The position numbers were made by a program, and so were the translations under genes. A stretch of 64,000 nucleotides of DNA from an uncultured Chloroflexota bacterium (GTDB lineage: Bacteria; Chloroflexota; UBA11872), in NCBI GenBank assembly GCA_958296175.1, contig OY282448.1, forward strand, positions 719,899-783,898, in the 5' to 3' direction. Below, one piece after another: positions 2,587-64,000 of this stretch. The notes under the pieces are model-generated. The model did not search any database and had not been told where the DNA came from. It saw only the letters and a program-made list of their open reading frames with translations. Numbering within the stretch: position 1 is the first letter of the stretch; every line of letters starts with the position of its first letter.

Positions 2587-3864
2587 ATGCACCGGCTGGC
2601 CATCGAGGGCGGCCCGCCCGCCGTCACCGCGCCCGTCGACGACCGGTGGGCCGACGTGACCGAGCGGGAGCGGCGCGCCGTGCTGGCGGCCCTGGAGGAC
2701 GAGAATTACGGCTACGACCAGATCGAGCGGTTCGAGGACGAGTTCCGCGCGTTCGTCGGGGCGCGCTTCGCCCTGGCGGTGTGCAACGGCACGGCGGCGC
2801 TGCACTCGGCCATGTTCGCGGCCGGCGCCGCGCGGGGGCGCGAGGTCATCGTGCCCTCGCTCACCTGGCACGCCTCCATCTCGCCGGCGCTGCACTGCGG
2901 CGCCGCGCCCGTGTTCGCCGACGCCGACCCGCAGACGTTTTGCATCGACCCCGCCGACGTGCGCCGCAAGATCACGGACCGCACCTGCGCCATCGTTGCC
3001 ACGCACGTTTACGGCGCCCCCGCCGACCTGGACGCCCTGCGTGACATTGCGGACGGCGCCGGCGTCACCCTGATCGAGGACGCCTCGCACGCCCACGGCG
3101 CGCGCTGGCGCGGACGGCCGGTCGGGGCCGTCGGGCACGTCGGCTGCTTCAGCTTGCAAGCCTCCAAACCCGTGAGCGGCATCGAAGCCGGCGTGGTAGT
3201 CACCAACGACCCGGCGCTGCACGACCGCATGGCCGCGCTGGGGCATTACGGGCGCGTGGACCGCCTGCTGCAGACCGACGCTTTCCGCGCCTTGGGCCGC
3301 GTTGGCCTGGGGGTCAAATACCGCGCCAACCCTCTGGGCATCGCCCTGGCGCGCGCGCGGCTGGCGCGGCTGCCCGACCTCAACCAGCGGCGCGCCCGTT
3401 GGTTCGCGCGGCTGGACGCCCTGCTGGACGACGTGCCCGGCGTCCATCCCCAGCAGACCTACGCCCCCGCCGAGCGCGGCGGCTATCTGATCTACGCCGT
3501 GCGCCTCGACCCCGCCGCGCTCGGCGCGCCTCTCGGCTCGATCCTTCGGGCGCTGGCCGCCGAAGGCGTGCGCGTCAACCCGGACCAACCCTCCGGCCTG
3601 TACGGCGCCATGCATCGACACCCGCTGTTCAGCGACTTCCCGTTCGACGGGCTGGGCGGCCCCTGGGGCGATCTGCCTGCGGACACGCGCCAACCCCTGC
3701 CGCCGGGCAGTCTGCCCGTGAGCGAGCGGCTCAACGCCGCGTGCGTCTGGCTCCCCACGCCCGTCGACCCCGCCGACGCCTGGGTGGCGCAGGTTGCCCA
3801 CGCCTTCGAAAAAGTGGCCGCGCACGCCCCCCGCCTCCGCCGCCTGTCCGCCCGCGGCGCATGA
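2587..3864 (+). CDS. DegT/DnrJ/EryC1/StrS-family PLP-dependent aminotransferase
   Basis: 425 aa with ALAVCNGTAALHSAMFAAG...REVIVPSLTWHAS...GCFSLQASKPV (PLP-lysine context) and DASHAHGA, typical of sugar aminotransferases. Confidence 0.85.
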   Translation: MHRLAIEGGPPAVTAPVDDRWADVTERERRAVLAALEDENYGYDQIERFEDEFRAFVGARFALAVCNGTAALHSAMFAAGAARGREVIVPSLTWHASISPALHCGAAPVFADADPQTFCIDPADVRRKITDRTCAIVATHVYGAPADLDALRDIADGAGVTLIEDASHAHGARWRGRPVGAVGHVGCFSLQASKPVSGIEAGVVVTNDPALHDRMAALGHYGRVDRLLQTDAFRALGRVGLGVKYRANPLGIALARARLARLPDLNQRRARWFARLDALLDDVPGVHPQQTYAPAERGGYLIYAVRLDPAALGAPLGSILRALAAEGVRVNPDQPSGLYGAMHRHPLFSDFPFDGLGGPWGDLPADTRQPLPPGSLPVSERLNAACVWLPTPVDPADAWVAQVAHAFEKVAAHAPRLRRLSARGA

Positions 3865-3928
3865 CGCGCGCGAGGCGCGGCCGCGAGGCAGCCGCCCCCG
3901 GCCTCGCGGCCCGGCCGGCACCCGGGCC

Positions 3929-5997
3929 GTGAATCGGCCGGCGCCGGCCACGCTGCCGTTTCGGGCGCGGGGCGGCAACGAACGGGCGCGGCTGGAAGTC
4001 AGGTTCCATCCGGCGGCGGGGGCCGCGGTGACGGGGCCGGATCTGCGCCTCACGGCCGGGGCGGTTGGCACCTGGGAGTTTCGAATCACCGTCCAGACGC
4101 CGGTCGCGGCCGGCGGCGGGTTCCTGTTCGAACGCTACGGGTTTCTGCTGGCGCACCGCGTGCAAGACGACCGGCCGCGGGGCCGCGACTTTGCCGTGCT
4201 GCATGCCAGCGCCGCCGCGCAGGTGCGGCTGGAGCTCAACACGCTCAACCAGTCCCACTGGCCCTCGTTTGCCCGCATCGCGGCGGCCGACGGCGCGCTG
4301 CGGCCCGGCGACGAGCTGCGGCTGCTGGTCGGCGACACCAGCCAGGGCGGGCCGGGCAGCGAGGTCTCCGACGTGACCTGCAACGGCCGTATCGTCGTGT
4401 CGATGGACCGCAGCGGCGGCCTGGACTACCGCCAGCTTTCGGGCGGCGAGGCGCGCCTGCACGTGGCGTCCGACCCCGCCCCCGCGCTGCTGCGGCTGCT
4501 CGGCCCATCCATCGCGCAGGTCGGCGAACCCTTTGCGCTGCACCTGGCCGTCTACGACCGCCACCACAACGTCTGCACGCAGTATCGGGGAACCATCGAG
4601 CTGCGCCCGGCGGCGGGTCTCCAGGGGCTGCCGCGCCGCGTGGAGCTTGGACCGGCGGACGCCGGCGCGGCCGTGATCGACGGCGTGTCGGCGTCCGCGC
4701 CCGGGCTGGTGCGTATCGAGGCGCACGACCGCGCCCGCGGGCTGTCCACGCGCAGCAACCCGCTGCGCGTGGAGGCGGCCCCGGCCGCGCGGCTGCTCTG
4801 GGGCGACCTGCACTCGCACAGTTGGGGCGACGTCAGCATGAGCCTGATGGACGACCCCACGCCGATGCTGCACCCGGCCGGCCGCCACGCCCAGGCGCGC
4901 GGCCAGGCGCGGCTGGACTTTGCGGCCCCCGGACCCATGGCGCCGCCCGATCAAGACCAGCGGCCCGCCGTCTGGCAGGCGCACCAGGACGCCCACCGCG
5001 CCAACGACCAGCCGGGCGCGTACGTCCCATTTCTGGCCGCCGAAGCGCATCCCCAGGTCGGCGGCGACCGCAACGTGATCTTTCGGGACTGGGCCGAGCG
5101 CCACGCGCCGGCCTTCGTCGACATGGACGAGCTGCTGGCGGCCTACGGCGGCCGCGAGGACGTGCTGCTGGAGGCGCACGTGGGCGGCGGGCCGGCGGAC
5201 TGGGAGGCCTACCCCACGGCGCACGAGCCGCTGGTGGAAGCGGCCAGCGGGCACGGGGCGGCGGAATGGCTGCTGCAGCGCGCCCTGCGCCACGGGCACC
5301 GGCCGGCCGTGATTGCCTCCGGCGACACCCACCTGCCCACACTGGCCGCCCCCATGGCCGCGCATCATTTTCGGGGACGCTTTCAGCGCTGGCTGCGGGT
5401 GCGCGACGCGGCCTTCGGCTGCGGGCCCGTGGCGGCGGTGCGCGCCGCGCGCTGCGAGCGCGGCGCCATTTGGCAGGCGCTGCGCGCGCGGCGCACCTAC
5501 GCCACTACCGGCGCGCGCATCATCCTGGAGGTGCGCGCCAACGGCCACCCGGCGGGCAGCGAGATCGCCCTCGACGCCGCGCCGCGCCGCTGCCGCAGGC
5601 CGCCTATTACGTGCGTCTGCGGCAGACCGACGGCGAATACGCCTGGAGCACGCCGATCTGGGCTGCATGCAGCCTGGGCGCCCCCGCCGCCGGCCGCAGC
5701 CTGCCCGCCTGGAACCGCCACGAAGCCATCGACCTGGACGCCGCGCATCCGAACGACGCCGAACCCTACGCCCCGCAGCTGCGCCAATACCTGGAGGACA
5801 ACGAGGACCCGAGATTGTTCCACCAGATCACCCCGATCCGCCTGGTGGACGAAGTCCCCGGCCGCGCCGCGCTCTTCTACGCCTACCTGGGCGGCGAGCG
5901 GGACCCGGTCTCGATCCGCTGGTACTTCGAGTTCCCCATGCCGCGCCTGCGCCTGGACTGGGGCTGGCGCGACTTTGGGATGAAGGACGGAGGCTGA
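3929..5997 (+). CDS. DUF3604-like / PHP-type metal-dependent hydrolase-like protein, with an apparent frameshift near 5585-5600
   Basis: Body lies in the frame of ORF 3794..5983 (LLWGDLHSHSWGD...TGARIILEVRANGHPAGSEIALDAAP). The C-terminus (AAYYVRLRQTDGEYAWSTPIWAA...WYFEFPMPRLRLDW) lies in the frame of ORF 4822..5997. The switch falls inside the gccgcgccgcgccgc repeat. Start assigned to GTG 3929, which is uncertain. Confidence 0.5.
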
Positions 5998-6163
5998 CGA
6001 CGGGGGCAGCCAGCGGCTCGCTGCCAGCGGCCTGCGGCCGCAAACCCACCGCTCTGTTCCGCAGGTGGTAGCCTGCCGTGACGGCCGTTCTCGGAAACGA
6101 CCGGGCGAACGGCGCATCGCGCTTGCAAACACGCAACAATCCAGGAGGGCGCGGCTTCCAGTG

Positions 6164-8710
6164 ATGACGAAACGACTCGTTCTGGCGGCGGTTGCCGTCG
6201 CCGTGCTTCTGTCTGCCGCGGTCTCCGCCGCCCTGGCGCAGTGGCCCACGACCTGCGTCGAGCTGAACGACCTCGCCGAGGCCGCCGCTGGCAACGTCGA
6301 CAACGTCGGCATCTATCAGCGCACCTACGGCGAACAGGCCGAAGCCGTGTGTCAGGCCGAACACCGCAACGACTTCTTCTTTGGCGCCCGCCCGTTCGCC
6401 ACGCCGCCCAAGACCGACCCGGCCGGCTTCACCCAGGCGTTCGTCGAGCGCGCCATCGACCGTTACAACGCCGACGGCATGCAAGCCGCGATCGACTACT
6501 ACAACGCGCCCGAGAGCATGGACGGGCGCTGGTACGTCTTCATCGTGGACGCCGACGGCGTGACGCGCGCCCACCCGAACCCGGAGATTCGCGGGCGCCG
6601 CGTCACCGACGTGCGCGGCCTGGCCGGTTACCCCAACGGCGCGCTGATCGCGGCCGCCGCCGCCGAGGGCGGCGCCTGGACGTCCGACGTGCTGACGGGC
6701 GCGGACGGCCAGCTGGAAACCAAGCACTACTGGCTCGTGCGCTACGACGGGCTGATCTTCGGCTCCGGCTGGTACGAACCCGGCCCCTCCAAGGCCGACG
6801 ACCCCGCCGCCTACACGCAGACCCTGGTGCAGCGCGCCGTGAGCCTCTACGACGCCGTGGGCCGCGACGAAACCTTCGCCCACTACGGCTCGCCGCAGAG
6901 CGTGGACGGCCCCTGGTACGTCTACGTCGCCGACGCGGAGGGCACGCTGCTGTCGCATCCCATCATGCCGGAGCTGGTGGGCGTCGAGGATCTGCGCGGG
7001 ACGGACGGCTTCCCCATCGCCCGGCAAAGCGCGGCCGCGGCCTCCGAGGACGGAGGCTGGGTGCACTACACCTGGACCAACCCGGAAACGGGCACGGCGC
7101 AGACCAAGCATTCCTGGAACGTCCTTCACGACGGGTTGATCTTCGGGTCGGGCTGGTACGAGCCTGCCCCGACCAAGGACGACCCCGCCGCCTTCACCCA
7201 GGCCTTCGTGCAGCAGGCCGTGAACCTCTACGAGGCCGCGGGCCGCGACGAAGCCTTCGCCTACTACGGCTCGCCGCAGAGCGTGGACGGCCCCTGGTAC
7301 GTCTTCGTCGTCGACGCCGGCGGCGAGCTGCTGGTCCACGCCGCGTCGCCGCAGCTGGTTGGACAAAGCCTGCGCGGCCCGCTGGGCACCGACAGCGCCG
7401 GCTACGCCTTCGGCGCCGACATCCTGGCCGCCGACGAGGCCGGGCGCTGGGTCAGCTACATCTTCGACAACCCCGAAACCGGCCAGGCAGGGCTCAAGCA
7501 TTCCTGGGTCCTGCGCCGCGGCGACCTGATCTTCGGCACCGGCTGGTACGAACCCGTCAGTGACGCCGCAGCCTTCACCCAGTCCTACGTGGCCAAAGCC
7601 GTGCAGGTGCTGGAGACCGACGGGCGCCAGGCCGTGCTCGACTACGCCAACGCGCCGGCCAGCGTGCAGGGACCCTGGTACACCTTCATCATCGACCGGG
7701 CCAGCGGCGCCATCGTGGCGCACGGCACGCGCCCGGAGCGCCTGGGCCGCACGCTGGACATCCTGGTGGATGTCTCCGGCTACCACTACGGCGCGGACTT
7801 CGCGCAAGCCACCGCTCAGGGCCGGTGGGTGGACTACATCTTCCTGAACACCGTGACAGGCGCCTACGAGCAGAAGCACTCGTGGGTGGTCGAACGCGAA
7901 GGCCTGATCATCGGCTCTGGCTGGTACGAACCCATCGACCGCGATGCCGACCCCGCGCGCTTCACCCAGGCGTTCGTGGCCAAGGCCCTGCGGCTGCACG
8001 AGACCGACGGGCGCCAGGCCGCCATCGACTACTACAACGCGCCGGCCAGCGTGCAGGGACCCTGGTACATCTTCATCATCGACAAGGCCAGCGGCGCCAT
8101 CGTGGCGCACGGCACGCGCCCGGAGCGCCTGGGCCGCACGCTGGACATCCTGGTGGATGTCTCCGGCTACCACTACGGCGCGGACTTCGCGCAAGCCACC
8201 GCTCAGGGCCGGTGGGTGGACTACATCTTCCTGAACACCGTGACGGGCGCCTACGAGCAGAAGCACTCGTGGGTGGTCGAACGCGAGGGCCTGATCATCG
8301 GCTCCGGCTGGTACGAACCCATCGACCGCGATGCCGACCCCGCGCGCTTCACCCAGGCGTTCGTGGCCAAGGCCCTGCGGCTGCACGAGACCGACGGGCG
8401 CCAGGCCGCCATCGACTACTACAACACCACCGCGAGCGTGGACGGCCCGTGGTACGTCTTCGTCGCCGACGCCAGCGGAGAGATGCTGGCCCACGCCGTG
8501 TCGCCGCAGCTCATTGGCCAAAGCCTGAGCGGCCCGCTGGGCACCGACAGCACCGGCTACGTCTTCGGCGCCGACATCCTGGCCGCCGACGAAACCGGGC
8601 GCTGGGTCGACTACGTCTTCCTGAACCCCACCACGGGCCAGGAAGGCACCAAGCACTCCTGGGTCGTGCGCCGCGGCGACCTGATCTTCGGCTCGGGGTG
8701 GTACGAGTAA
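6164..8710 (+). CDS. secreted protein with an N-terminal two-Cys module followed by six tandem single-Cache (sCache_2-like) domains
   Basis: ATG 6164 preceded by AGGAGG. Signal peptide MTKRLVLAAVAVAVLLSAAVSAALA. Six repeats of roughly 129 aa, each with YNAPxSVDGPWYVFxxDxxGxxxAHxxxPExxG...GxWVxYxxxNPxTGxxxxKHSWVxxxxGLIFGSGWYEP, which matches the sCache_2 pattern. No TM segment and no output domain. Confidence 0.8.
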   Translation: MTKRLVLAAVAVAVLLSAAVSAALAQWPTTCVELNDLAEAAAGNVDNVGIYQRTYGEQAEAVCQAEHRNDFFFGARPFATPPKTDPAGFTQAFVERAIDRYNADGMQAAIDYYNAPESMDGRWYVFIVDADGVTRAHPNPEIRGRRVTDVRGLAGYPNGALIAAAAAEGGAWTSDVLTGADGQLETKHYWLVRYDGLIFGSGWYEPGPSKADDPAAYTQTLVQRAVSLYDAVGRDETFAHYGSPQSVDGPWYVYVADAEGTLLSHPIMPELVGVEDLRGTDGFPIARQSAAAASEDGGWVHYTWTNPETGTAQTKHSWNVLHDGLIFGSGWYEPAPTKDDPAAFTQAFVQQAVNLYEAAGRDEAFAYYGSPQSVDGPWYVFVVDAGGELLVHAASPQLVGQSLRGPLGTDSAGYAFGADILAADEAGRWVSYIFDNPETGQAGLKHSWVLRRGDLIFGTGWYEPVSDAAAFTQSYVAKAVQVLETDGRQAVLDYANAPASVQGPWYTFIIDRASGAIVAHGTRPERLGRTLDILVDVSGYHYGADFAQATAQGRWVDYIFLNTVTGAYEQKHSWVVEREGLIIGSGWYEPIDRDADPARFTQAFVAKALRLHETDGRQAAIDYYNAPASVQGPWYIFIIDKASGAIVAHGTRPERLGRTLDILVDVSGYHYGADFAQATAQGRWVDYIFLNTVTGAYEQKHSWVVEREGLIIGSGWYEPIDRDADPARFTQAFVAKALRLHETDGRQAAIDYYNTTASVDGPWYVFVADASGEMLAHAVSPQLIGQSLSGPLGTDSTGYVFGADILAADETGRWVDYVFLNPTTGQEGTKHSWVVRRGDLIFGSGWYE
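7651..8424 (+). repeat. near-identical 387-bp tandem duplication inside the sCache gene (two copies, 129 codons each)
   Basis: cgcgccggccagcgtgcagggaccctggtaca begins at 7651 and again at 8038. The copies differ by only a few substitutions across about 387 bp. Confidence 0.85.
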
Positions 8711-8800
8711 CCGCCGCGCCGGGTCGAGGCCGCCTGGGCCCGGCGGCGCGCGCGGCCGCGCCGCCAGACGTCCAGGCGCGCGTCGGCTTCGGGCCCCGCC

Positions 8801-9151
8801 GTGGCTGACCCGCGCGGCGTAGTGCAGCGGCATTGGGACGCCGTGCAGTCCGGCGACTTCGACGCCATCGCCGCCGACTATGCGCCCGACGCGCGCTTCG
8901 TGCGCCCGGGCCTGACCACCGCGGGCCGCCAGGGCTGCCGCGAGTTCTTCGCGCGGCTCTTCGACGAGCTGGACGGCTTCCAGGCGCGGCAGGACTCGGT
9001 GACCGTGGACGGCGACGTCGTGCTGCTGGAATGGTCCGCCGCGCACGCCGACGGCCGCGCGGCCCGCGGCGTGGATACCTTCGTGGTGCGCAAGGGGCTG
9101 ATTCAGACGCAGACGCTGGCGTTCCACATCACGCCCGCAGCCGACGGCTAG
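8801..9151 (+). CDS. SnoaL-like / NTF2-like domain protein
   Basis: 116 aa. HWDAVQSGDFDAIAADYAPDARFVRPG...VLLEWSAAHADGRAARGVDTFVVRKGLI is typical of a SnoaL-like polyketide-cyclase fold. Confidence 0.6.
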   Translation: MADPRGVVQRHWDAVQSGDFDAIAADYAPDARFVRPGLTTAGRQGCREFFARLFDELDGFQARQDSVTVDGDVVLLEWSAAHADGRAARGVDTFVVRKGLIQTQTLAFHITPAADG

Positions 9152-9155
9152 ACGG

Positions 9156-9752
9156 ATGCCGGGCAGCGGCGTCGACGACGCCCTGCGCGCCCGCGTGCGC
9201 GCGGAGTTGCCCGAAGTCGCTCTGATCCGCGACTCCGCCCTGGCCGATCGGGTCGTGGAGGCGTGGGCGCTGGCGCTGGCGCGCAGTTCCTTCGACGCCA
9301 TCGCCGACATTCGCGCCTCGGGCAACCCCGACACCCCGCCGCTGACGCAGGGCACGCAAACCGACCACATTCGGGGCGTGACGCGCCTGGCCGTCGCCAT
9401 CGCCGACCAGCTGGTCGGCCAGTTCCCCGGCCTGGCCGTCGACCGCGACCTGCTGATTGCGGCCGCCCTCTGCCACGACGTGGGCAAGCCCTGGGAATTC
9501 GACCCCGACAACCAGGCCCGCTGGTCTTCCCAACGGGCGCGCACCGGCTGGCCGTCGATCCGCCACCCGGCCTACGGCGTGCACGTCTGCCTGACGGTGG
9601 GGCTGCCCGAAGAAGTGGCGCACGCCGCCGGCGGCCACTCCGGCGAGGGCGAGCTGATCCAGCGCAGCCTGATCAACCAAATCGTCCACCAAGCCGACTA
9701 CGCCTTCTGGAACGTGCTGCGCGCCGGCGGAATGCTAGAGGCGGACGGCTAG
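9156..9752 (+). CDS. HD-domain phosphohydrolase
   Basis: 198 aa with the AALCHDVGKPWEF HD motif and downstream His/Asp residues. Confidence 0.75.
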   Translation: MPGSGVDDALRARVRAELPEVALIRDSALADRVVEAWALALARSSFDAIADIRASGNPDTPPLTQGTQTDHIRGVTRLAVAIADQLVGQFPGLAVDRDLLIAAALCHDVGKPWEFDPDNQARWSSQRARTGWPSIRHPAYGVHVCLTVGLPEEVAHAAGGHSGEGELIQRSLINQIVHQADYAFWNVLRAGGMLEADG

Positions 9753-12166: not shown

Positions 12167-13300
12167 TCAGCGGGTGTTCGAAGGCGCGGGGTCGGGGAGC
12201 CGCTCTTGGGCCCAGGCCAGGATGTCGGGGTTCAGCAGGAACTCGACGTCGGCGTCGGCGCGCATGGTTTGCAGCCAGCGGTCGAAGGTTGCGTTGCGGC
12301 GGCGGTCGGCGGTCTCGGGAGCGAGGCCGCGGGACGCGGCGCGTTCGTGAACCAGGATGACGTGCCAGCCCAGCGGCGTCTCCACGGGCCGGCTGCGGGT
12401 TCCGGGCCGCAGCTCGAAGGCCGCCTGGTCCCAGACCTCCGGCATGAGGCCGCGCGGCAGCCAGCCAAGGTCGCCGCCGTCCGGCGCGCTGTCGTCGATG
12501 GATACCTGCTCGGCCACCAGCGCGAAGGGCTGGAGCGCCTTCAAGCGGGCGACCACGGTTTCGGCCTGGTCCTCGGCGGCGGTCACGATCTGCGCGGCGC
12601 GAATCTGTTCGGGCGCCGGGTCGAGCTCCGACGCCAGCCGCTCGGCCACCGCGGCGGCCAGCGCGCGGTCGGCGATGACGCCGCGAATGGTGTCGGCGCC
12701 GAGCCCGGTCTGGTCACGCACGCGCGCAAAGGCCTGCTCGAACGAGGCGTCGTCCTGTTGGCCGCCAACCACGCGCACGAACTCGGCCAGGGCCGCGTCC
12801 ACGTCGGCGTCGGAGACCTCGACCTGCATCTCCAGCGCCGCGGGGCGCACGACCTCCGCGGCGACCAGATCGGTTACGGCCCCGAAGGTCAGCGTGGCCA
12901 GCTGCGATTGCAGCTCGTCCGGCGCGGCGGCGCCGGCGGCAGTTGGCGCGGCGGCGATGCGCCGCCGCAGTTCCAGCCCGCGCAGCGCCAGGTAGTCCGC
13001 ATAGCGCGCGGCGGTGATTGGTTCGCCGTTCACGATGGCGACCGGTTCGGCGGGCCGCGCAACCAGCTCGCCGTAGAGCGACGCGCCGATCAAGGCGCCG
13101 GTGACGGCCGCCAGCAGCGCGGCGGCGGCGATCAGGGACTTGGCGGCGGCGGCGCGGCGCAGGGAGGGCCGCTGCTCGCGCCAGTCGCGCAGCGCGGCGG
13201 GCAGGTCGCGCCACGCCAGGCTGACGCTGGCGCGTTGGCGGGCGGCGCGGCGGCGGTCGCGGGCGGCGCGGCGGCGTTGGGCGTGCGTGCGCGGCGGCAT
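12167..13300 (-). CDS. PpiC/parvulin-type peptidyl-prolyl cis-trans isomerase (SurA/PrsA-like), membrane anchored
   Basis: 377 aa. Arg-rich N-terminus, TM helix SLIAAAALLAAVTGALIGASLYG, and C-terminal parvulin motif GDLGWLPRGLMPEVWDQAAFELRPG...TPLGWHVILVHE. Confidence 0.75.
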   Translation of the reverse strand: MPPRTHAQRRRAARDRRRAARQRASVSLAWRDLPAALRDWREQRPSLRRAAAAKSLIAAAALLAAVTGALIGASLYGELVARPAEPVAIVNGEPITAARYADYLALRGLELRRRIAAAPTAAGAAAPDELQSQLATLTFGAVTDLVAAEVVRPAALEMQVEVSDADVDAALAEFVRVVGGQQDDASFEQAFARVRDQTGLGADTIRGVIADRALAAAVAERLASELDPAPEQIRAAQIVTAAEDQAETVVARLKALQPFALVAEQVSIDDSAPDGGDLGWLPRGLMPEVWDQAAFELRPGTRSRPVETPLGWHVILVHERAASRGLAPETADRRRNATFDRWLQTMRADADVEFLLNPDILAWAQERLPDPAPSNTR

Positions 13301-13318
13301 CCGCGCGAAGGTCTGGCG

Positions 13319-13654
13319 CTAGCCGCGCAGGCGGCGGCGCACCACGTAGGGCAGCAGGCCCAGATAGCGGGCGCGCTTGATGGCGATGGCCAGCTTGCGC
13401 TGATTCTTGGCCGTGATGCCCGTCTTGCGGCGCGACTCGATGCGGCCCGTGTCGGCGATGAAGCGCCGCAGCAGCATGGCGTTCTTGTAGTCGATGGGTT
13501 CGCCGGTCTGATTGAAGTAGTCGCCGCGGCGCCGGAACCCGCGGCCGCGGCCGCGCCCACGGCCGCCCGGCCGCGGGCGTCCGCCCGACCCGCCGCCGCC
13601 CGACGGCGGCCGCTGGCTGCTTTCCGTTGTTCCGGTGGGTCTGTCGGTGGCCAT
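13319..13654 (-). CDS. rpsR: 30S ribosomal protein S18
   Basis: [50 protein letters not shown] is the S18 signature. Gly/Arg-rich N-terminal extension. Confidence 0.9.
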
Positions 13655-13681
13655 GGCGTCCGTCCTGGGTGCTGGTGCGCG

Positions 13682-14188
13682 CTAAAAGGGCAGGTCGTCG
13701 GGGGAAATGTCGCCCTGGTCCGCCGCCGGGCGGTTGCCGCTCTGGTTGTCTGGGCGTCCGCCGCCGTCGGAGCGTGCCTCGTCGCGGTCACCGTACGACC
13801 CGCCGCCGTCACCGCCGCTCGAGCGGCTGCCCAGCATCATCATGTCGCGCGCGATCAGCTCGGTGGTGGTGCGGTCGTTGCCTTCGCGGTCTTGCCACTG
13901 GCGCGTTTCCAGCCGTCCTTCGATGTAGACCTGGGAACCGCGGCGGAGGTATTCGTTGGCGATCTCGGCAAGCCGCCTCCAGGCCACGATGCGGAACCAC
14001 TCGGTGCGCTCGCGCGCCTCCCCGTCGCGGCCTTGCCAACTGTCATTGACCGCCACGCTGAAGTTGGTGACGGGCGTGCCGTCCTGCGTGAAGCGCATCT
14101 CAGGGTCGCGCCCCAGGTTGCCGATGATCTGGACTTTGTTGAGGCCGCGCGAGCGGCCGCGCCGCTGTTGCCCGCTCTCGTTCGTCAA
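13682..14188 (-). CDS. ssb: single-stranded DNA-binding protein
   Basis: OB-fold LNKVQIIGNLGRDPEMRFTQDGTPVTNFSVAVN...WFRIVAWRRLAEI..YIEGRLETRQW, a Gly-rich linker and an acidic DDLPF tail. Confidence 0.9.
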   Translation of the reverse strand: MTNESGQQRRGRSRGLNKVQIIGNLGRDPEMRFTQDGTPVTNFSVAVNDSWQGRDGEARERTEWFRIVAWRRLAEIANEYLRRGSQVYIEGRLETRQWQDREGNDRTTTELIARDMMMLGSRSSGGDGGGSYGDRDEARSDGGGRPDNQSGNRPAADQGDISPDDLPF

Positions 14189-14523
14189 CGGTGCGCCTCC
14201 GCCAGCTGCTTGGCCTCGTAGGCGGCCACATCGGGGTCTTCGGCCACGATCAGGAAGCGCGTCACGTCTTCCAGCAGCCGCAGCGAGCGCTCCAGCTCGG
14301 CAACGTTGGCCGGGTCGATGGTGAATTTCAAGAGCACGTAGTGCCCCTCGTTCTGATTCTCGATCGGGTAGGCAAACTTGCGGCGGCCCCAGGCGTTGGC
14401 CGTGTCCACCTCGCCGCCCTGGACGCTGATGCGCTCGGTGACGGCGTCAATGTGGGCGGCGGTGAGCTCGGGGACCTGGCCGACCCCAAAGATCACCACG
14501 AGTTCGTAACTGCGCACGGCCAT
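14185..14523 (-). CDS. rpsF: 30S ribosomal protein S6
   Basis: RSYELVVIF...EVDTANAWGRRKFAYPIENQNEGHYVLLKF is the S6 signature. Stop overlaps the ssb start (ATGA). Confidence 0.9.
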   Translation of the reverse strand: MAVRSYELVVIFGVGQVPELTAAHIDAVTERISVQGGEVDTANAWGRRKFAYPIENQNEGHYVLLKFTIDPANVAELERSLRLLEDVTRFLIVAEDPDVAAYEAKQLAEAHR

Positions 14524-14761
14524 GTCGTTTCCAGAAGTCTAGCTGCGCCGCGGGGCGCAGAGTTCCAACTCCGCTGAGCTGCGGACGGCAACTCTAGCAT
14601 AGGACACGCGCGGGGAGGATGCGTGGACCGTGCCTGGCTGCCGGGGGATTGGCGGGCAGCGCGGCGGCAGGCGGGAACGGCGGCGTGTTCGCGCGGTGCA
14701 CAATGGAGGAGCAGAGGGGCGGCTGGGCGGCGATGGCCGGGGCGGCGGATAGGAGACCGAG

Positions 14762-15712
14762 GTGAAGGCGCTGCTGCTGGGCGCGGCGGCGGTCGGCGCG
14801 TGGCTGGCGCTGCGGGGGCGGCCGCCCCCATTCGAGATCACCGCGCATCTCGAGGACGGCCGCCGGACCCCAACCAGCGACGGCCGCTTGTACAGCCGCG
14901 CGTTCGGCGCGGGGGCGGACGTGCTGATGCTGCCCGGCTTCTGCGGCAACACGCGCACCTGGGAGTTCGTGACCCCGCGCCTGGCGCGTGAGTTCCGAGT
15001 GCACTGGCTCGACCTGCTGGGCCACGGGCTGTCCGACAAGCCCGCCGCCGCCCGCTACGACGCCGCCGCGCACGCCGCGCGCGTGATCGAGTGGATGGAC
15101 GCCCAGCGGCTGGCGCGCACAGTCGTGGCGGCCAGTTCGGCCGGGGCGCAGACGGCGGTCAGGCTGGCGGCGGATTACCCGGCGCGCGTGGGCGGTCTGC
15201 TGCTGGTCAGCCCGTTTCTGGTTGCCAACCTCCAGCTGCGCCTGGCCGTCTGGCTGTTGCGCGCGCTGCCCGGCCCCACGGGCATGCTGGCGCAGCGGCT
15301 CTATGCGCAACGCTGGTACGTGCGCCTGGGGCAGATGCTGGGCCGCTGCGACGCCTGGGGGACGACCAGCGCCGACGTGGATCGGCAATACCTGACCTTC
15401 GGCACGCCGGGGTTCCTGGAGGCGCTGCCGGCCATGCTGGCCGGCGTGGACCCGCTGGCGCACGACCAGGCGATTGCGCGGACCGCCTGCCCCGTGCTGA
15501 CGATCATCGGCGAGACCGACCGGGTCGCGGCCTACGACCTGGCCCTGGGGCTGGTCGGGCGCTTTGCCGACGCCGAGCTGCGCGTCATTCCACAGACGGG
15601 CCACCTGCCGCACGAGGAGGCGCCCGACGCCTTTCTGGAACGCGCCGCGCCCTTCCTGGCGCGCACGGCCTGCGCCGCGGCCGCTGGGGGGCAGCCGCGG
15701 CGGAGCGCCTGA
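14762..15712 (+). CDS. alpha/beta-hydrolase fold protein
   Basis: GTG 14762 after GGAGAC. HGLSD, nucleophile elbow AASSAGA (GxSxG variant) and C-terminal PQTGHLPHEE. Confidence 0.75.
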   Translation: MKALLLGAAAVGAWLALRGRPPPFEITAHLEDGRRTPTSDGRLYSRAFGAGADVLMLPGFCGNTRTWEFVTPRLAREFRVHWLDLLGHGLSDKPAAARYDAAAHAARVIEWMDAQRLARTVVAASSAGAQTAVRLAADYPARVGGLLLVSPFLVANLQLRLAVWLLRALPGPTGMLAQRLYAQRWYVRLGQMLGRCDAWGTTSADVDRQYLTFGTPGFLEALPAMLAGVDPLAHDQAIARTACPVLTIIGETDRVAAYDLALGLVGRFADAELRVIPQTGHLPHEEAPDAFLERAAPFLARTACAAAAGGQPRRSA

Positions 15713-34838: not shown

Positions 34839-35657
34839 CTACGACTGCGAGGCCCCTTCCTGGTCGGCCAGAAACTGCCGCCCGGCGTCGGTGATCTCCC
34901 AGAGGCCGGGAGGAGTTCCGCGCAGCATCAATCCGCGCTGGACCAAGCGCAGTCTGGTGAAATGAACGTTCCACTGCCAGCGGACGCCGCCTGAACGAAC
35001 ATCTTGGTGATCGGTCTCTGTGAACTGGTCGGCCAGCGTTCTCCCAACGTAATCAACGACGAAAGACTTTGGCGCCGACCCGCCTGCTTTCACAAGGGCC
35101 TCCAGGACTGGCGTCGAGTACGCGCTTTGCGGAAGCTTCGGCCCATCTGGGATTCGTGTTCGATTCGCCGTTCCAGCTTCGTCGGCGAGCGCGCCCGCGT
35201 CGGCTGCGACGCTCCGTCCCCGGTCTGTGATTTCCCAGACGCCCCGTGGAGAATCCTGCTTCAGCAACCCGCGTCTGATCATTTCCATCCTGACGACGTG
35301 AACACGAGTGCGCCAGCGGACCCCGCGGCCTGATGGCAAACGCTGGAGGTCGCGCTCCGTCAGGCGGTCGGCGAGTTCCTTCTCGACGGCCTCGATGACG
35401 CTGACCGCCGGGGCCGCCCCGCCAGCTTCCACGAGGGTCGTCAAGATCGGCGCTGTGAACTCGCTTTGCGGCAGCACCGACCCTCGGCGCACGCTGGCAC
35501 CGGTCGCCGCGGGCTCCAACCCAAGGAGCCGCCGTAGAACGCTGTTCGGCGTGTCGACGAATGGTTCAGCGCACGCTTGCAAATACGCAAACACATCCTC
35601 GTCGACCGTGATCTTCTGAGCCCTGTTGATCTCCAATGTGCAACTACCGTCCTTCAT
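34839..35657 (-). CDS. DNA-binding protein: N-terminal ribbon-helix-helix-like segment plus two tandem Mrr_N-like winged-helix domains (paralog 1)
   Basis: 272 aa. KITVDEDVFAYLQACAEPFVDTPNSVLRRLLGL, then two repeats LPQSEx...GGSAP...LADxxTExDxQxxxSGxVRWxxxVxxxRxxLxxxGLxxxxxPxGxWEITDxGR. Low-GC gene (about 55%). Confidence 0.6.
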   Translation of the reverse strand: MKDGSCTLEINRAQKITVDEDVFAYLQACAEPFVDTPNSVLRRLLGLEPAATGASVRRGSVLPQSEFTAPILTTLVEAGGAAPAVSVIEAVEKELADRLTERDLQRLPSGRGVRWRTRVHVVRMEMIRRGLLKQDSPRGVWEITDRGRSVAADAGALADEAGTANRTRIPDGPKLPQSAYSTPVLEALVKAGGSAPKSFVVDYVGRTLADQFTETDHQDVRSGGVRWQWNVHFTRLRLVQRGLMLRGTPPGLWEITDAGRQFLADQEGASQS

Positions 35658-35735
35658 TCAGAGGCTTGCAGCCAACATTTATACAATGCACAACGGTTAG
35701 ATTCGCTTTCGCTGTCCCTCAGCAGTATCCATCTG

Positions 35736-36524
35736 CTATGGCCGCTCGTTGCTTTCTGCGTCAGTCAGGAATTGCCGCCCGGCGCCGGTGATCTCCCAGA
35801 GGCCGTGTGGGCTGTCTTGTCTCAGCAACCCGCTCCTGACCAACTGCAGCCTAGCGAACTGCGTGCGACTCCTCCATCGGATTTCCCGGGCGGACGAAAG
35901 TTGCTGGCGGTCAAGTTCCGTCAGCCTGTCGGCAAGTATCCGCCCAACTGAGTCAACGACGTCGACCGTTGGCGCAGACCCGCCTGCCTCCACAAGCGTC
36001 CTCAAGACTGGCAATAAATATTCGGTCTGTGGAAGCCATGGTCCCCTAGCTGGGATATCTTGCTTTCCCTCGCTCGGTTTGTCTACGGGGGGATCCGCGT
36101 TCGTTAAGAATCGCCGCCCGGCTTCTGTTATCTCCCAGCTGCCGGGTGGAGTTCCACGCGTTATCAAGCCACGCTTGACCATCTGCGACTTGGCAACTTG
36201 TGCGCGATGCCGCCATCGAACGGGGCCTGACGATAATCGCTGAAGGTCAGCCCCTGTTAGCCGTCCGGCCAGCTGGCTCCAAACGGCATCCAGGACATCA
36301 GTCAACTTCGCCGACCCTCCGGCGTCTATGAGTGCCGTTAAGATTGGCACCATGTATTCGTCACTAGGCAGCAATGATTTTTTAGTCTTTACGGGGGGAT
36401 TCTCGTCGGGACGCCCAAGCCCCAAAAGCCGCCGTAGGACAGTGTTTGGCGTGTCGACGAAAGGCTTGGCCTTCGACTGGAGGAGTTCGTACACTTCCTC
36501 GTCCACGTCGATCCGCCGAACCAC
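35736..36524 (-). CDS. DNA-binding protein: RHH-like segment plus two Mrr_N-like winged-helix domains (paralog 2)
   Basis: GTG 36524 after GGAGGAAGCGG. IDVDEEVYELLQSKAKPFVDTPNTVLRRLLGL, then two repeats ending GSWEITEAGRRFL and GLWEITGAGRQFL. Low GC. Confidence 0.6.
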   Translation of the reverse strand: MVRRIDVDEEVYELLQSKAKPFVDTPNTVLRRLLGLGRPDENPPVKTKKSLLPSDEYMVPILTALIDAGGSAKLTDVLDAVWSQLAGRLTGADLQRLSSGPVRWRHRAQVAKSQMVKRGLITRGTPPGSWEITEAGRRFLTNADPPVDKPSEGKQDIPARGPWLPQTEYLLPVLRTLVEAGGSAPTVDVVDSVGRILADRLTELDRQQLSSAREIRWRSRTQFARLQLVRSGLLRQDSPHGLWEITGAGRQFLTDAESNERP

Positions 36525-36635
36525 CCGCTTCCTCCGAATCGTATGGGAGGGCCTGCGCGCACCATGCCCTACCCCTCCTCTGCTTGCAAGAATCCCGGCC
36601 CTTCGGCGTGCCGCCGGAAGCCTTAGGGGGCGCAC

Positions 36636-37634
36636 ATGACGGCTGGTCCTATCCGCTGGGGGATTTTGTCTACGGCGGCCATTGCTCGGCGGGCGGTGGG
36701 GCCGGCGATTCGGTTGGCTCGGAATGGGGTGTTGCGGGCGGTGGGGAGCCGTTCGTTGGGGCGGGCGCGGGCGTTTGCGGCGGAGCTGGAGATTCCGGCG
36801 GCGCATGGGTCGTACGAGGCTCTGCTGGCGGACCCGACGGTGGACGCGGTGTACGTGCCGCTGCCAACGGCGCTGCATCGGGACTGGGTGCTGGCGGCGG
36901 CGCGGGCTGGCAAGCACGTGCTGGTGGACAAGCCGTTTGCGGTGAACGCGGCGGAAGCGGCGGAGATGGCGGCGGCCTGCCGCCGCGCCGGGGTGCAGCT
37001 GCTGGAGGGCTTTATGTACCGCTACGACCCTCGGCACGCGCGGCTGCGGGCGCTGGCGGCCGACGGCGCGATTGGCGAGCTGCGGCGCGTGGTCACGGCG
37101 TTTGCGTTTCCCATCACGCGCAACGCGGCCAACGTGCGGCTGTCCCGCGCGCTGGCGGGCGGGGCGCTGGGCGACCTGGGGACCTATTGCGTGAGCGTCA
37201 GCCGTTTGCACCTGGGCGGCGAGCCTCGGCGGGCGGCGGCGCGCCTGGAGGTGGACGCCGAGTTTGGCGTGGACGTGGACGGGTCGGCGCTGCTGGACTT
37301 CGGCGCGGGGCGCGCGGCCGTGCTGGACTTCAGCTTCCAGACGGCGCGGCGGCAGTCGCTGGCGCTGGTTGGAACGGCGGGCGTCATCCAGGCCGAGCGC
37401 CATATTCTGGACGGCGGCGCGCCGAGCGAGATTCGGATTCGAACGGCGGGCCGCACGCTGACGGAGCGCTTCGAGCCGTTCGACCCTTACCGGGCGGAGG
37501 TGGAAAATCTGGGGGACGCCGTGCACGGCCTGGCGCCGCCGCTGGTGGACGGGGACGAAGCGGTGCGCAACATGCGCGTGCTGGACGCCGTGCGCGCCAG
37601 CGCGCGGCGCGGCGCCTGGGAGGAGCTGACATGA
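36636..37634 (+). CDS. Gfo/Idh/MocA-family oxidoreductase
   Basis: IRWGILSTAAIARRAVGPAI...VLVDKPFA... typical of the family. Confidence 0.8.
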   Translation: MTAGPIRWGILSTAAIARRAVGPAIRLARNGVLRAVGSRSLGRARAFAAELEIPAAHGSYEALLADPTVDAVYVPLPTALHRDWVLAAARAGKHVLVDKPFAVNAAEAAEMAAACRRAGVQLLEGFMYRYDPRHARLRALAADGAIGELRRVVTAFAFPITRNAANVRLSRALAGGALGDLGTYCVSVSRLHLGGEPRRAAARLEVDAEFGVDVDGSALLDFGAGRAAVLDFSFQTARRQSLALVGTAGVIQAERHILDGGAPSEIRIRTAGRTLTERFEPFDPYRAEVENLGDAVHGLAPPLVDGDEAVRNMRVLDAVRASARRGAWEELT

Positions 37635-55619: not shown

Positions 55620-56190
55620 GCGCCGCGGCCTTGCGTTCCGCCTTCGGGGGACCTTTGCGTACTTCCCAGGCGCGGGGGCCGGTGGGGTTGCCGACGTGCA
55701 CGGCCGCCGCCTGTTGCCGTACCTCCCAGGCGCAGGGGACGGTGTCGGCGAACCAATGCCAGCATCGGTGTACCTCGTGCCTGCGGGATTCCGGCGTTCA
55801 CCGGAATGACGGATTCTGCAAAGGTCTCGTCGGGCGCCGCGACCTTTCGGTCGGCCGCGCGGGCACCGCGCGTTTGGAAGCCGCCGTCTGTGGGGCGTAT
55901 GCTTGCTGCACGCACACATTGTGCCTTCGGGGCAGGGTGAGCCTGGCGGTGCCGGGCAATTCCCGACCGGCGGTGAGGCGCATGGCCGAGCCCGCGACCC
56001 GGCGTTTGCCGGTTGATCCGGTGCGAATCCGGAGCCGACGGTACAGTCCGGATGGAAGAAGGCGCCGTGGGCGCGCTCATGCGCGCGCGCCCGTGCCCCG
56101 GCGGCTCACGCGTTGGACGAACACCGTGGCACCCGCCCTGACCGCCATACCCGCCTTCTTCTCGGACGCCGCGCGCCGCTGTGGGGCGCC

Positions 56191-63008: not shown

Positions 63009-63083
<75 letters not shown>

Positions 63084-63215
63084 AATCATTCTACCTGCCC
63101 GCGGGCCGCTGCGGCGCCCGACGTGGGAATTTCGGCGCGGGGCGACGGGGCGGCGGGGCGGGCCGCGCGGGGACAGCATCGGCCGCGCGGCGGGCGGGCA
63201 GGGGTCGGGCGTAGG

Positions 63216-63545
63216 GGGCGGGAGCATCGAACCGGGCGGTAAGCCGCATTCTGTCGCGGGCGGCCATCTATCTGGGACCGGCGTTGCCGCCGGCCTCGTG
63301 CGGCCCACCTGGGACTGGGCGAGCAGCCTCGCAGCGTCCCGGCTTGGCCTTGCTTCCGGTAGAGGTTGGCCGTTTCACTCCCGGCGGGGCGCCGGGCATC
63401 GTCACTGTGCCCCTGGTCCGGCCCTTGGCGGCGGGCGGCCGCCTCGGACGGCGGGTGTTACCCGCTACCGTGCTCTGTGAAGTGCGGACTTTCCTCTCGG
63501 GCGGCGGGCCCGAGCGGCCGCCTGCCCGACCCGATGCTCCCGGAG
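63216..63545 (-). ncRNA. rnpB: RNase P RNA (bacterial type A)
   Basis: Minus-strand RNA contains GAGGAAAGUCCGCAC (P4 5' strand), GGUAACACCCGCC, GGAAGCAAGGCCAAG, GACAGAAUGCGGCUUACCG, and a long P1 helix GGGAGCAUCGGGUCGGGC paired with GCCCGGUUCGAUGCUCCC. Confidence 0.85.
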
Positions 63546-63837
63546 CCATCGTCGCACATTGCGCCGGCGCGGCGATGGGCCGGCGGGCCTGGCTTGCACA
63601 CGCGGGACTTGCAGCGCGCGTGGGGATTGCCGCGGGCCGCACTGGAACGGCCTGTGTCCAGCAGCCGCAGGCCTGGGCGGCGGCCCTTCGCAGGGGAAGA
63701 GTGAGTGTGAGGCTGCGAACTCGTCATGACCCGGCAGGGTATGTCCGGCGGACGGCCGCCGCGTGATGCGGCGATGGTCCAGGTGAACACTCACCCTGGG
63801 TGGCCGCGCGGCCGAAGCCTCGCGGCACAATCCCTAG

Positions 63838-64000
63838 AAAGGAGGTGATCCAGCCGCAGCTTCCGCTACGGCTACCTTGTTACAACTTCGCCCCAATCGC
63901 CAGCCCCGCCCTCGACGGCTGCTCCCCTTGCGGGTTGGCGCACCGTCTTCAGGTGTTGCCGACTTTCATGGCGTGATGGGCGGTGTGTACAACGCCCGGG
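63838..64000 (-). rRNA. 16S ribosomal RNA, 3' terminal about 160 nt (gene continues beyond window end)
   Basis: Plus strand carries AAGGAGGTGATCCAGCCGCA and GGCTACCTTGTTACAACTT (the 1541R/1492R primer sites), plus GGGCGGTGTGTACAA. This places the 16S 3' end (GGAUCACCUCCUUUCU) on the minus strand ending near 63838. Confidence 0.9.

Follow-up and report, generated by a model that had tools for sequence, protein, structure and literature searches.

A predicted exported chain of six sCache_2 domains without an output module in an uncultured Chloroflexota bacterium, and the family of Cache arrays to which it belongs

The stretch of DNA analyzed here (the window; 64,000 nucleotides (nt) of contig OY282448.1 from an uncultured Chloroflexota bacterium) carries, on its plus strand at 6164..8710, a gene for an 848-residue protein that consists of a short N-terminal region followed by six consecutive Cache domains; we refer to it as the poly-Cache gene. 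It occupies open reading frame (ORF) 6065..8710 of the plus-strand ORF list, in which ATG 6164 is the preferred start, with a Shine-Dalgarno-like AGGAGG 15 nt 5' of this codon and 12 nt 5' of an in-frame GTG at 6161. The G+C content of the window is ~72%, so many spurious ORFs overlap the gene region, and the antisense ORF 5828..9544 (minus strand) and the other overlapping ORFs were set aside as artefacts of this composition. The product is identical to NCBI/ENA protein P0001, which is carried on a 3.0-Mb contig; the protein is thus already in the databases, unnamed or as 'cache domain-containing', and its architecture and family are so far undescribed. Scans for sigma-70 promoters and terminators around the gene returned nothing above chance, and no further Cache paralogues were found in the 64-kb window. 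The features of the gene, all on the plus strand, are the following (U, unit; aa, amino acids; pocket residues in the order of the quartet described below).

6143..6148, plus: Shine-Dalgarno-like AGGAGG, read in the sequence
6164..8710, plus: poly-Cache coding sequence including stop codon, 848 aa (ORF list; Pfam sCache_2; 100% database match to P0001)
6164..6241, plus: predicted Sec-type signal peptide, aa 1-26 (MTKR, 21-residue hydrophobic core, ALA/QW), in the sole hydrophobic segment
6242..6403, plus: two-Cys module, aa 27-80, helices 31-41 and 50-66, invariant Cys31 and Cys63 (AlphaFold secondary structure; orthologue conservation)
6404..6778, plus: U1, aa 81-205, loop type A, pocket Y-H-D-K (one Tyr replaced); sCache_2 26.8 bits
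6779..7162, plus: U2, aa 206-333, loop type A, pocket Y-H-Y-K; sCache_2 38.9 bits
7163..7552, plus: U3, aa 334-463, loop type B, pocket Y-H-Y-K; sCache_2 29.7 bits; the unit modelled with AlphaFold and searched with Foldseek
7553..7930, plus: U4, aa 464-589, loop type C, pocket Y-H-Y-K; sCache_2 29.3 bits
7931..8317, plus: U5, aa 590-718, chimeric new unit (three-way DNA comparison), loop type C, pocket Y-H-Y-K; sCache_2 31.4 bits
8318..8707, plus: U6, aa 719-848, loop type B, pocket Y-H-Y-K; sCache_2 40.7 bits

When the whole protein was scanned against Pfam, sCache_2 (PF17200) matched in six stretches with an E-value of 1.2e-50 and 171.9 bits; the overlapping matches to dCache_2, sCache_3_2 and dCache_1 were weaker than this, and there was no other credible family. 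The units were delimited at a recurring GWYE, which places their ends at aa 205, 333, 463, 589, 718 and 848. Scanned singly, each of the six had sCache_2 as its best family, with scores of 26.8-40.7 bits against a gathering score of 25, and dCache_2 scored under its threshold for most of them. K-H-S-W and G-S-G-W-Y-E are unit motifs specific to the family.

U3 was modelled with AlphaFold from an alignment of 72 unit sequences; the model has a predicted local distance difference test score (pLDDT) of 97.7 and comprises two N-terminal helices and a five-stranded sheet. A Foldseek search of the PDB with this model returned solved sCache_2 sensors at all of ranks 1-11, with template-modelling (TM) scores of 0.69-0.77, namely VP0354 (4exo/2qhk), TlpB with urea or amides (3ub6-9), Adeh_3718 (4k08) and PscD (5g4y), followed by a sharp fall to generic PAS domains with TM scores below 0.55. 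In the model of the full-length protein every unit has two short helices and five strands of its own, and the linkers between units are ~7 residues long. These separate helices rule out a dCache arrangement, in which two PAS-like modules sit on one long N-terminal stalk helix.

The pocket of solved sCache_2 structures is small, fits C2-C3 acids and encloses the ligand between a pair of aromatic side chains. In PscD the residues Tyr90, His103, Tyr143 and Lys156 are the hydrogen-bond donors to the ligand carboxylate; Tyr/His/Lys has been proposed as a signature of carboxylate-sensing single Cache domains (PMC5062169). A profile-to-PDB alignment places these four residues at unit positions 46, 59, 99 and 112. 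Among 977 distinct units of the family, the corresponding residues are Tyr46 in 97%, His59 in 81% (Asn in 11%), Tyr99 in 97% and Lys112 in 98%, with the quartet (YHYK) intact in 78% of the units, and the 97-98% at the Tyr/Tyr/Lys positions compares with a mean column identity of 46% for the unit as a whole. The quartet is YHYK in U2-U6 of the window protein and YHDK in U1, in agreement with the carboxylate-sensing sCache_2 subgroup of PscD, McpP and Adeh_3718. The flanking aromatics differ, being Phe48 and Phe/Tyr101 in the units versus Trp92 and Trp145. By sequence, modelled fold and pocket, the units are members of sCache_2.

The segment from His59 to Trp96, which lines the pocket, comes in at least three loop types, which follow one another in the order A-A-B-C-C-B along the window protein; family-wide, type A is hardly ever the final unit of an array. 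This pattern suggests that units are functionally differentiated within a chain, and the presence of three loop types in one chain suggests that a single chain may bind more than one ligand. In the archaeal branch of the family introduced below (P0148, P0275, P0287 and others), the Tyr/Tyr/Lys positions are conserved and the pocket His position holds His in 45%, Asp in 24% and Gln in 21%, which hints at unit types of differing ligand chemistry, TlpB being known to employ Asp for urea.

Two of the six units are far more alike than the others. Adjacent stretches of 387 nt, in which near-identity had been noticed in the original prediction, differ at only six positions, and the features that bear on their origin are these.

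7651..8037, plus: 387-nt tandem duplication, copy 1, 381/387 identical to 8038-8424 (Tandem Repeats Finder, TRF)
8038..8424, plus: 387-nt tandem duplication, copy 2 (TRF; pairwise and three-way DNA comparison)
7613..7651 (U4), 8000-8038 (U5) and 8387-8425 (U6), plus: homology tract common to the three units, encoding ETDGRQA... (three-way DNA comparison)

The six differences comprise three synonymous changes and three nucleotides that alter two codons, and TRF reports a period of 387 nt with 2.3 copies, 94% matches and a score of 1568. Since the remaining unit pairs are just 40-70% identical as proteins, the likeness of U4 and U5 lies far above the array background. When U4, U5 and U6 were compared in three-way DNA register, U5 was 100% identical to U6 through 8037 and, from 8038 onward and including the next linker, 98% identical to U4, whereas U4 and U6 are only ~40% identical across the tail in which U5 matches U4. 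The switch in identity falls at the end of the tract GAGACCGACGGGCGCCAGGCCG... that U4, U5 and U6 have in common, a 22-nt stretch is identical in all three, and the crossover point is placed at 7648-7651 / 8035-8038 / 8422-8425. U5 is thus an in-frame chimera of a U6 head and a U4 tail with a single switch, as expected if U4 and U6, then neighbours, underwent one unequal crossover. Repeats of 387 nt can be assembled wrongly from short reads, and the near-identity of U4 and U5 might be taken for the false expansion of a five-unit gene during assembly. We regard such an artefact as extremely improbable, as six sites distinguish the copies, U5 is a clean chimera, in frame and with a crossover that can be placed, the same protein is present on the 3.0-Mb contig, and 44 family members contain unit pairs at least 95% identical, many of them on complete long-read chromosomes.

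Recombination that duplicates or homogenises units is general to the family. Among 211 family proteins with at least three units, 103 contain a unit pair that is at least 80% identical, 62 a pair at least 90% identical and 44 a pair at least 95% identical, and in 79 of the 103 the top pair is adjacent. The syntenic orthologues of the window protein have 3, 4, 4 and 5 units against its 6, and no one-to-one correspondence could be drawn between the units of the window array and those of the four orthologues. Flanking proteins in these four loci are 62-83% identical to their window counterparts and the Cache units 40-57%; taken with the differing unit counts, this indicates that the array turns over far faster than its surroundings. 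The proposal that the array is still expanding by tandem duplication was therefore sustained, by the single crossover in the window gene, by the census of relatives and by the spread of three to six units among orthologues. Array length changes when neighbouring units recombine unequally through the stretches conserved between them. Independent and very recent unit duplications were also seen at L003 (7830-9599; P0046), L015, L016, L043, L070, L077 and other loci, and in several relatives the unit pairs are 100% identical as protein; near-identical pairs in so many relatives imply concerted evolution or repeated unequal crossover family-wide.

At the N-terminus, the only hydrophobic segment of the protein is aa 1-28. 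A signal peptide is predicted within it, with probable cleavage after ALA (ALA/QW), and the site, as ALA/[QED]WPT, is kept in 7 orthologues; the same hydrophobic sequence could alternatively serve as an uncleaved anchor. No transmembrane segment beyond aa 1-28 and no output domain in Pfam and NCBIfam scans was found, the NCBIfam scan returned no family for the protein, and the C-terminus (...GSGWYE) coincides with the end of U6 with nothing after it. An anchor test found no lipobox (Cys31 does not lie in one), LPXTG, SLH or C-terminal signal. Having neither a second transmembrane helix (TM2) nor an output domain, the protein falls outside the Cache receptor classes (methyl-accepting chemotaxis proteins, histidine kinases and cyclases). 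The original prediction had described a signal-peptide protein with an N-terminal two-Cys module, six sCache_2-like units, no further transmembrane segment and no output module, and had read it as something other than a receptor; profile searches of each unit and structure prediction of U3 agree with this description, in which the signal peptide remains a prediction from sequence.

The protein has exactly two cysteines, C31 and C63, and both belong to the module between the signal peptide and U1, for which a Pfam scan returned no family. This two-Cys module is 62-68% identical among orthologues and is better conserved than the Cache units. It marks a subfamily that includes, besides the window protein, P0017, P0046 and the proteins at L020, L023, L034, L036 and L052, all with the ALA/[QED]WPT signal peptide and the two-helix, two-Cys module in the place where relatives have an anchor. 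Its function may be docking or attachment, with a disulfide as the staple, or else dimerisation. A word-indexed search for the module on other proteins gave a single match, the truncated 77-aa homologue P0131 on a 235-kb contig, which has the signal peptide and only the first half of the module, is 89% identical to the window protein and is a truncation or else a fragment that stands by itself.

Word-indexed searching with the protein found 437 relatives of 476-1473 aa, nearly all with Cache matches only in Pfam, and an exhaustive profile search of 1.84 billion representatives (50% identity clusters) found 369 clusters at E<=1e-30, with 2-16 units per protein. Six units are mid-range within this family, and the architecture, which had first been taken for exceptional, is one shared by hundreds of relatives. 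Reference genomes gave at least 589 matches, the best 80 of which are all in uncultured metagenome-assembled genomes (MAGs); the hosts among these 80 are Dehalococcoidia, Caldilineaceae and other Chloroflexota, and Acidimicrobiia including Candidatus Spongiisociaceae. Many of the host MAGs bear sponge names, and a sponge origin is documented for the SB066x bins and Spongiisociaceae. Sponge Thaumarchaeota such as 'Cenarchaeum sp. SB0663_bin_5' have a divergent, AT-rich branch of the family with 5-15 units, in agreement with the published enrichment of Cache Pfams in sponge-associated Thaumarchaeota, where they were proposed as recognition factors (PMC7848895). A literature search found no paper describing prokaryotic tandem Cache arrays; the only 'tandem' or 'multiple' Cache proteins it returned were the animal Ca-channel alpha2delta subunits and CACHD1. 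At ten Caldilineaceae loci (L009, L010, L012, L014, L038, L041, L045, L050, L062 and L075) a two-unit Cache paralogue lies ~4 kb upstream of a gene with 4-6 units, and L040 has a four-unit paralogue as its counterpart.

Relatives differ in how they appear to be held at the cell, and the following anchors were recognised.

Lipobox: the commonest form in the family
Uncleaved N-terminal transmembrane segment and coiled-coil stalk: P0005
LPXTG sortase signal: P0041, P0081
SLH domains: P0023
Lipobox and collagen-like G-X-Y stalk: P0008
Lipobox and Thr/Glu-rich spacer: P0132, with 16 units

The lipoboxes and LPXTG signals of relatives support export, and because the anchors are of monoderm type the family appears to be surface-displayed, on cells with monoderm-type anchoring, and not periplasmic or freely soluble. 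Of the earlier suggestion of a soluble periplasmic or extracellular protein, the location outside the cell is upheld for the family and the periplasmic or freely soluble state is not; the window member, with its two-Cys hairpin where others have an anchor, may be either released or tethered. Surface display on its own might be the whole function, with the Cache folds serving mainly as the beads of a stalk, spacer or envelope coat and ligand binding being vestigial: the variable unit number, the short 7-residue linkers and the SLH variant resemble S-layer-like or stalk proteins, and in some fusions the units separate the anchor from an enzyme or lectin domain. We consider this structural explanation very improbable, as the pocket residues are the most conserved (97-98%) where the remainder averages 46%, and most members display Cache units alone.

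Rare fusions bear on the role of the array. P0257 (871 aa) joins four Cache units to SBP_bac_3 (656-863), P0349 (882 aa) joins a Cache-like half to Peripla_BP_6 (508-844), and these Rosetta-stone-type fusions hint at a role in solute capture; P0026, which combines a 5'-nucleotidase, Cache units and a C-terminal anchor, likewise connects the arrays with the acquisition of nutrients. A Peripla_BP_6 gene is immediately downstream at L003, L020 and L023, all loci of the two-Cys subfamily, and this, with the few Liv-type ABC operons that adjoin family genes, is a further, weak hint of solute capture. The interpretation that we favour, with confidence that is about even, is that the protein sits at or near the cell surface as a chain of several carboxylate-binding sites, sends no signal and captures small acids for uptake; its architecture and its identity as a set of binding modules are much more certain than this physiological role. 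Each unit would bind a carboxylate-bearing small molecule independently, so that a six-unit chain could bind several molecules of small organic acids or carboxylated compounds outside the cell without sending a signal, and the mixed loop types may widen the range of ligands. The captured organic acids or carboxylated host compounds would be held at the surface and feed, in trans, uptake systems encoded elsewhere. In this scheme we infer export, cleavage, ligand class, site independence and the role in capture.

Several observations weigh against carboxylate capture for uptake. Carboxylate as the ligand class is assigned from four aligned residues and the generalisation of one paper, TlpB has the same fold and yet binds urea, and U1 is missing one Tyr of the quartet. 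The full-length model has a predicted TM score (pTM) of 0.49, at which the arrangement of the units is not fixed by the model, and the window member has no recognised anchor. No transporter, ABC (ATP-binding cassette) or Peripla_BP_6 gene lies near the poly-Cache gene in the window, and when flanking ORFs were clustered all against all, no family was shared by more than 16 of the 84 loci, the recurrent ones being those of orthologous Caldilineaceae loci; with neither a recurrent neighbour nor a transporter, the gene is essentially stand-alone. A Liv-type ABC operon or Peripla_BP_6 gene was found by phmmer within 10 kb at just ~6-8 of 80 loci. The Liv-type operons that adjoin family genes are at L001/L006, L005/L024, L056 and L068, and they carry a Peripla_BP_6 of their own. 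A Liv/HAAT ABC partnership as a family trait, to which L001 and L005 had drawn attention, was rejected in view of this rarity and of the operons' own binding protein. For the scavenger, buffer or shuttle roles put forward in the original prediction, which remain candidates, these loci gave no general link to a transporter or receptor gene.

Other fusions, to BspA-type leucine-rich repeats (LRR), LamG plus Ig, and LVIVD, also count against capture for uptake, in that they point to adhesion or host interaction instead. The units might then form a multivalent adhesin or lectin that binds uronic acids, sialic-acid-like or pyruvylated sugars on sponge matrix, host cells or the bacterium's own wall, repetition giving avidity and the fast unit turnover reflecting host-symbiont co-evolution or avoidance of phagocytosis. 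Besides the fusions, this would fit the concentration of the family among sponge symbionts that span three phyla and two domains of life (by MAG names or documented origin), the LPXTG, SLH and collagen-stalk anchors of relatives, which are of the surface-adhesin type, the faster evolution of the array (40-57% identity against 62-83% for its flanks), and the Cache enrichment in sponge Thaumarchaeota with its recognition-factor proposal (PMC7848895). An enclosed pocket for C2-C3 acids, however, suits free small molecules better than polymers, and the quartet is conserved much more strictly than diversifying recognition would predict, so that we judge an adhesin unlikely, though worth serious consideration. 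A broader proposal, which is speculative and to our minds improbable, is that of a cross-domain symbiosis factor: a metabolite-binding coat of variable copy number on sponge-symbiont Chloroflexota, Acidimicrobiia and Thaumarchaeota, spread horizontally, that would sequester carboxylated metabolites of the host or community or decorate the cell with host molecules and thereby mediate recognition or escape from phagocytosis.

The stronger conservation of the N-terminal module (62-68%) relative to the binding units raises another explanation, that the ligand-loaded array is a co-factor that docks, by the two-Cys hairpin, on a sensor, channel or ABC transporter of the membrane whose gene lies elsewhere, in the manner of binding-protein-dependent sensors or alpha2delta. 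At L003 a hybrid histidine kinase lies directly upstream of the family gene and Peripla_BP_6 downstream; fusions to solute-binding proteins (SBPs) exist, and the sole published extracellular proteins with multiple Cache domains and no output are alpha2delta and CACHD1. We give ligand presentation little credence, given that no conserved partner gene lies beside the family, that the window locus offers DUF3604, SnoaL and HD genes but no sensor and no transporter, and that most members have generic anchors in place of the hairpin, so that docking on a specific partner is not characteristic of the family.

The order of genes at the window locus is DegT aminotransferase, DUF3604, poly-Cache, SnoaL_2, HD, a hypothetical gene and YkuD, and it is conserved in the four orthologous loci. 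The gene directly upstream (3794-5983, plus strand) encodes a 729-aa protein with a weak DUF3604 match, and a DUF3604-like neighbour with 71-74% identity stands beside the poly-Cache gene in all four syntenic loci. Near the orthologous gene at L002, positions 13073-14770 encode a large protein with fn3 and leucine-rich repeats, of a eukaryotic-like type typical of sponge symbionts. Elsewhere in the window, 34839-37526 is an islet of low G+C (0.62-0.64 versus ~0.72) with two Mrr_N (restriction-endonuclease N-terminal domain) proteins on the minus strand, probably a horizontally acquired defence islet, and a full-length flavin mononucleotide (FMN) riboswitch scoring 100 bits lies at 55919-56067 (plus strand). 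At 63009-64000 (minus strand) are the 16S rRNA 3' end (63838-64000, cut by the window edge), then RNase P RNA (63224-63533) and tRNA-Met (63009-63083); the lack of a spacer and 23S rRNA after the 16S gene suggests that the rRNA genes are not linked.

In prokaryotic signalling, Cache domains count as the chief extracellular input modules and occur in one or two copies together with an output. The family described here uses the domain without output, in chains of 2-16 that appear to be surface-displayed, with the ligand pocket strictly conserved. Should ligand binding by the units prove as predicted, this would be a sensor domain turned to capture or adhesion at the surface. The most common sensor domain of prokaryotes would then have a use other than signalling, concentrated in bacterial and archaeal symbionts of sponges, and the family would be a concrete candidate, open to test, for a part in the exchange of metabolites or the interaction with the host in sponge holobionts. 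It also illustrates cleanly, in nature, how an array grows by unequal crossover while its units turn over very fast.

Among known systems, the sensor domains of sCache_2 chemoreceptors (PscD-SD, 5G4Y; Adeh_3718, 4K08; VP0354, 4EXO; Helicobacter pylori TlpB, 3UB6) share with the units the Pfam family, the fold (TM scores of 0.69-0.77) and the extracytoplasmic location predicted for the array, and PscD also the Tyr/His/Tyr/Lys carboxylate-binding residues. Those receptors, however, have a single domain between two transmembrane helices in a dimeric receptor with a cytoplasmic signalling domain, whereas the array has six tandem units of ~128 aa (2-16 in the family) and lacks long membrane-spanning helices, TM2 and output. 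The alpha2delta subunits and CACHD1 are extracellular, membrane-tethered and non-enzymatic, as the family is predicted to be, with several Cache domains and no signalling output, but they are auxiliary subunits of channels with Cache domains of dCache_1 type and a VWA domain, which the array lacks, and their sequence relationship to it is at superfamily level only.

Gram-positive ABC importers have tethered or tandem substrate-binding domains (SBDs), as in GlnPQ with its two fused SBDs, as well as lipoprotein SBPs. These modules resemble the family, as interpreted here, in being extracytoplasmic, output-less, often lipid-anchored and sometimes repeated, and in capturing solutes in the absence of an outer membrane, and rare poly-Cache members are themselves fused to SBP_bac_3 or Peripla_BP_6. 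They have a Venus-flytrap fold, in contrast to the PAS-like Cache fold, and the array has no permease fusion or consistent permease gene and occurs in far higher copy numbers; a classical ABC substrate-binding protein is ruled out by the PAS-like rather than two-lobed fold and by the lack of linkage to a permease or ATPase. Monoderm bacteria also have surface proteins of variable repeat number that are attached by LPXTG, SLH or collagen-like anchors. Members of the poly-Cache family have the same anchors, near-identical repeats and a copy number that changes by recombination, but the repeats of those proteins are Ig-like, collagen or low-complexity sequences, whereas the repeat here is a small-molecule sensor domain with a conserved pocket. 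By analogy, the closest functional parallels of the array may be tethered solute-binding modules or surface proteins of variable repeat number.

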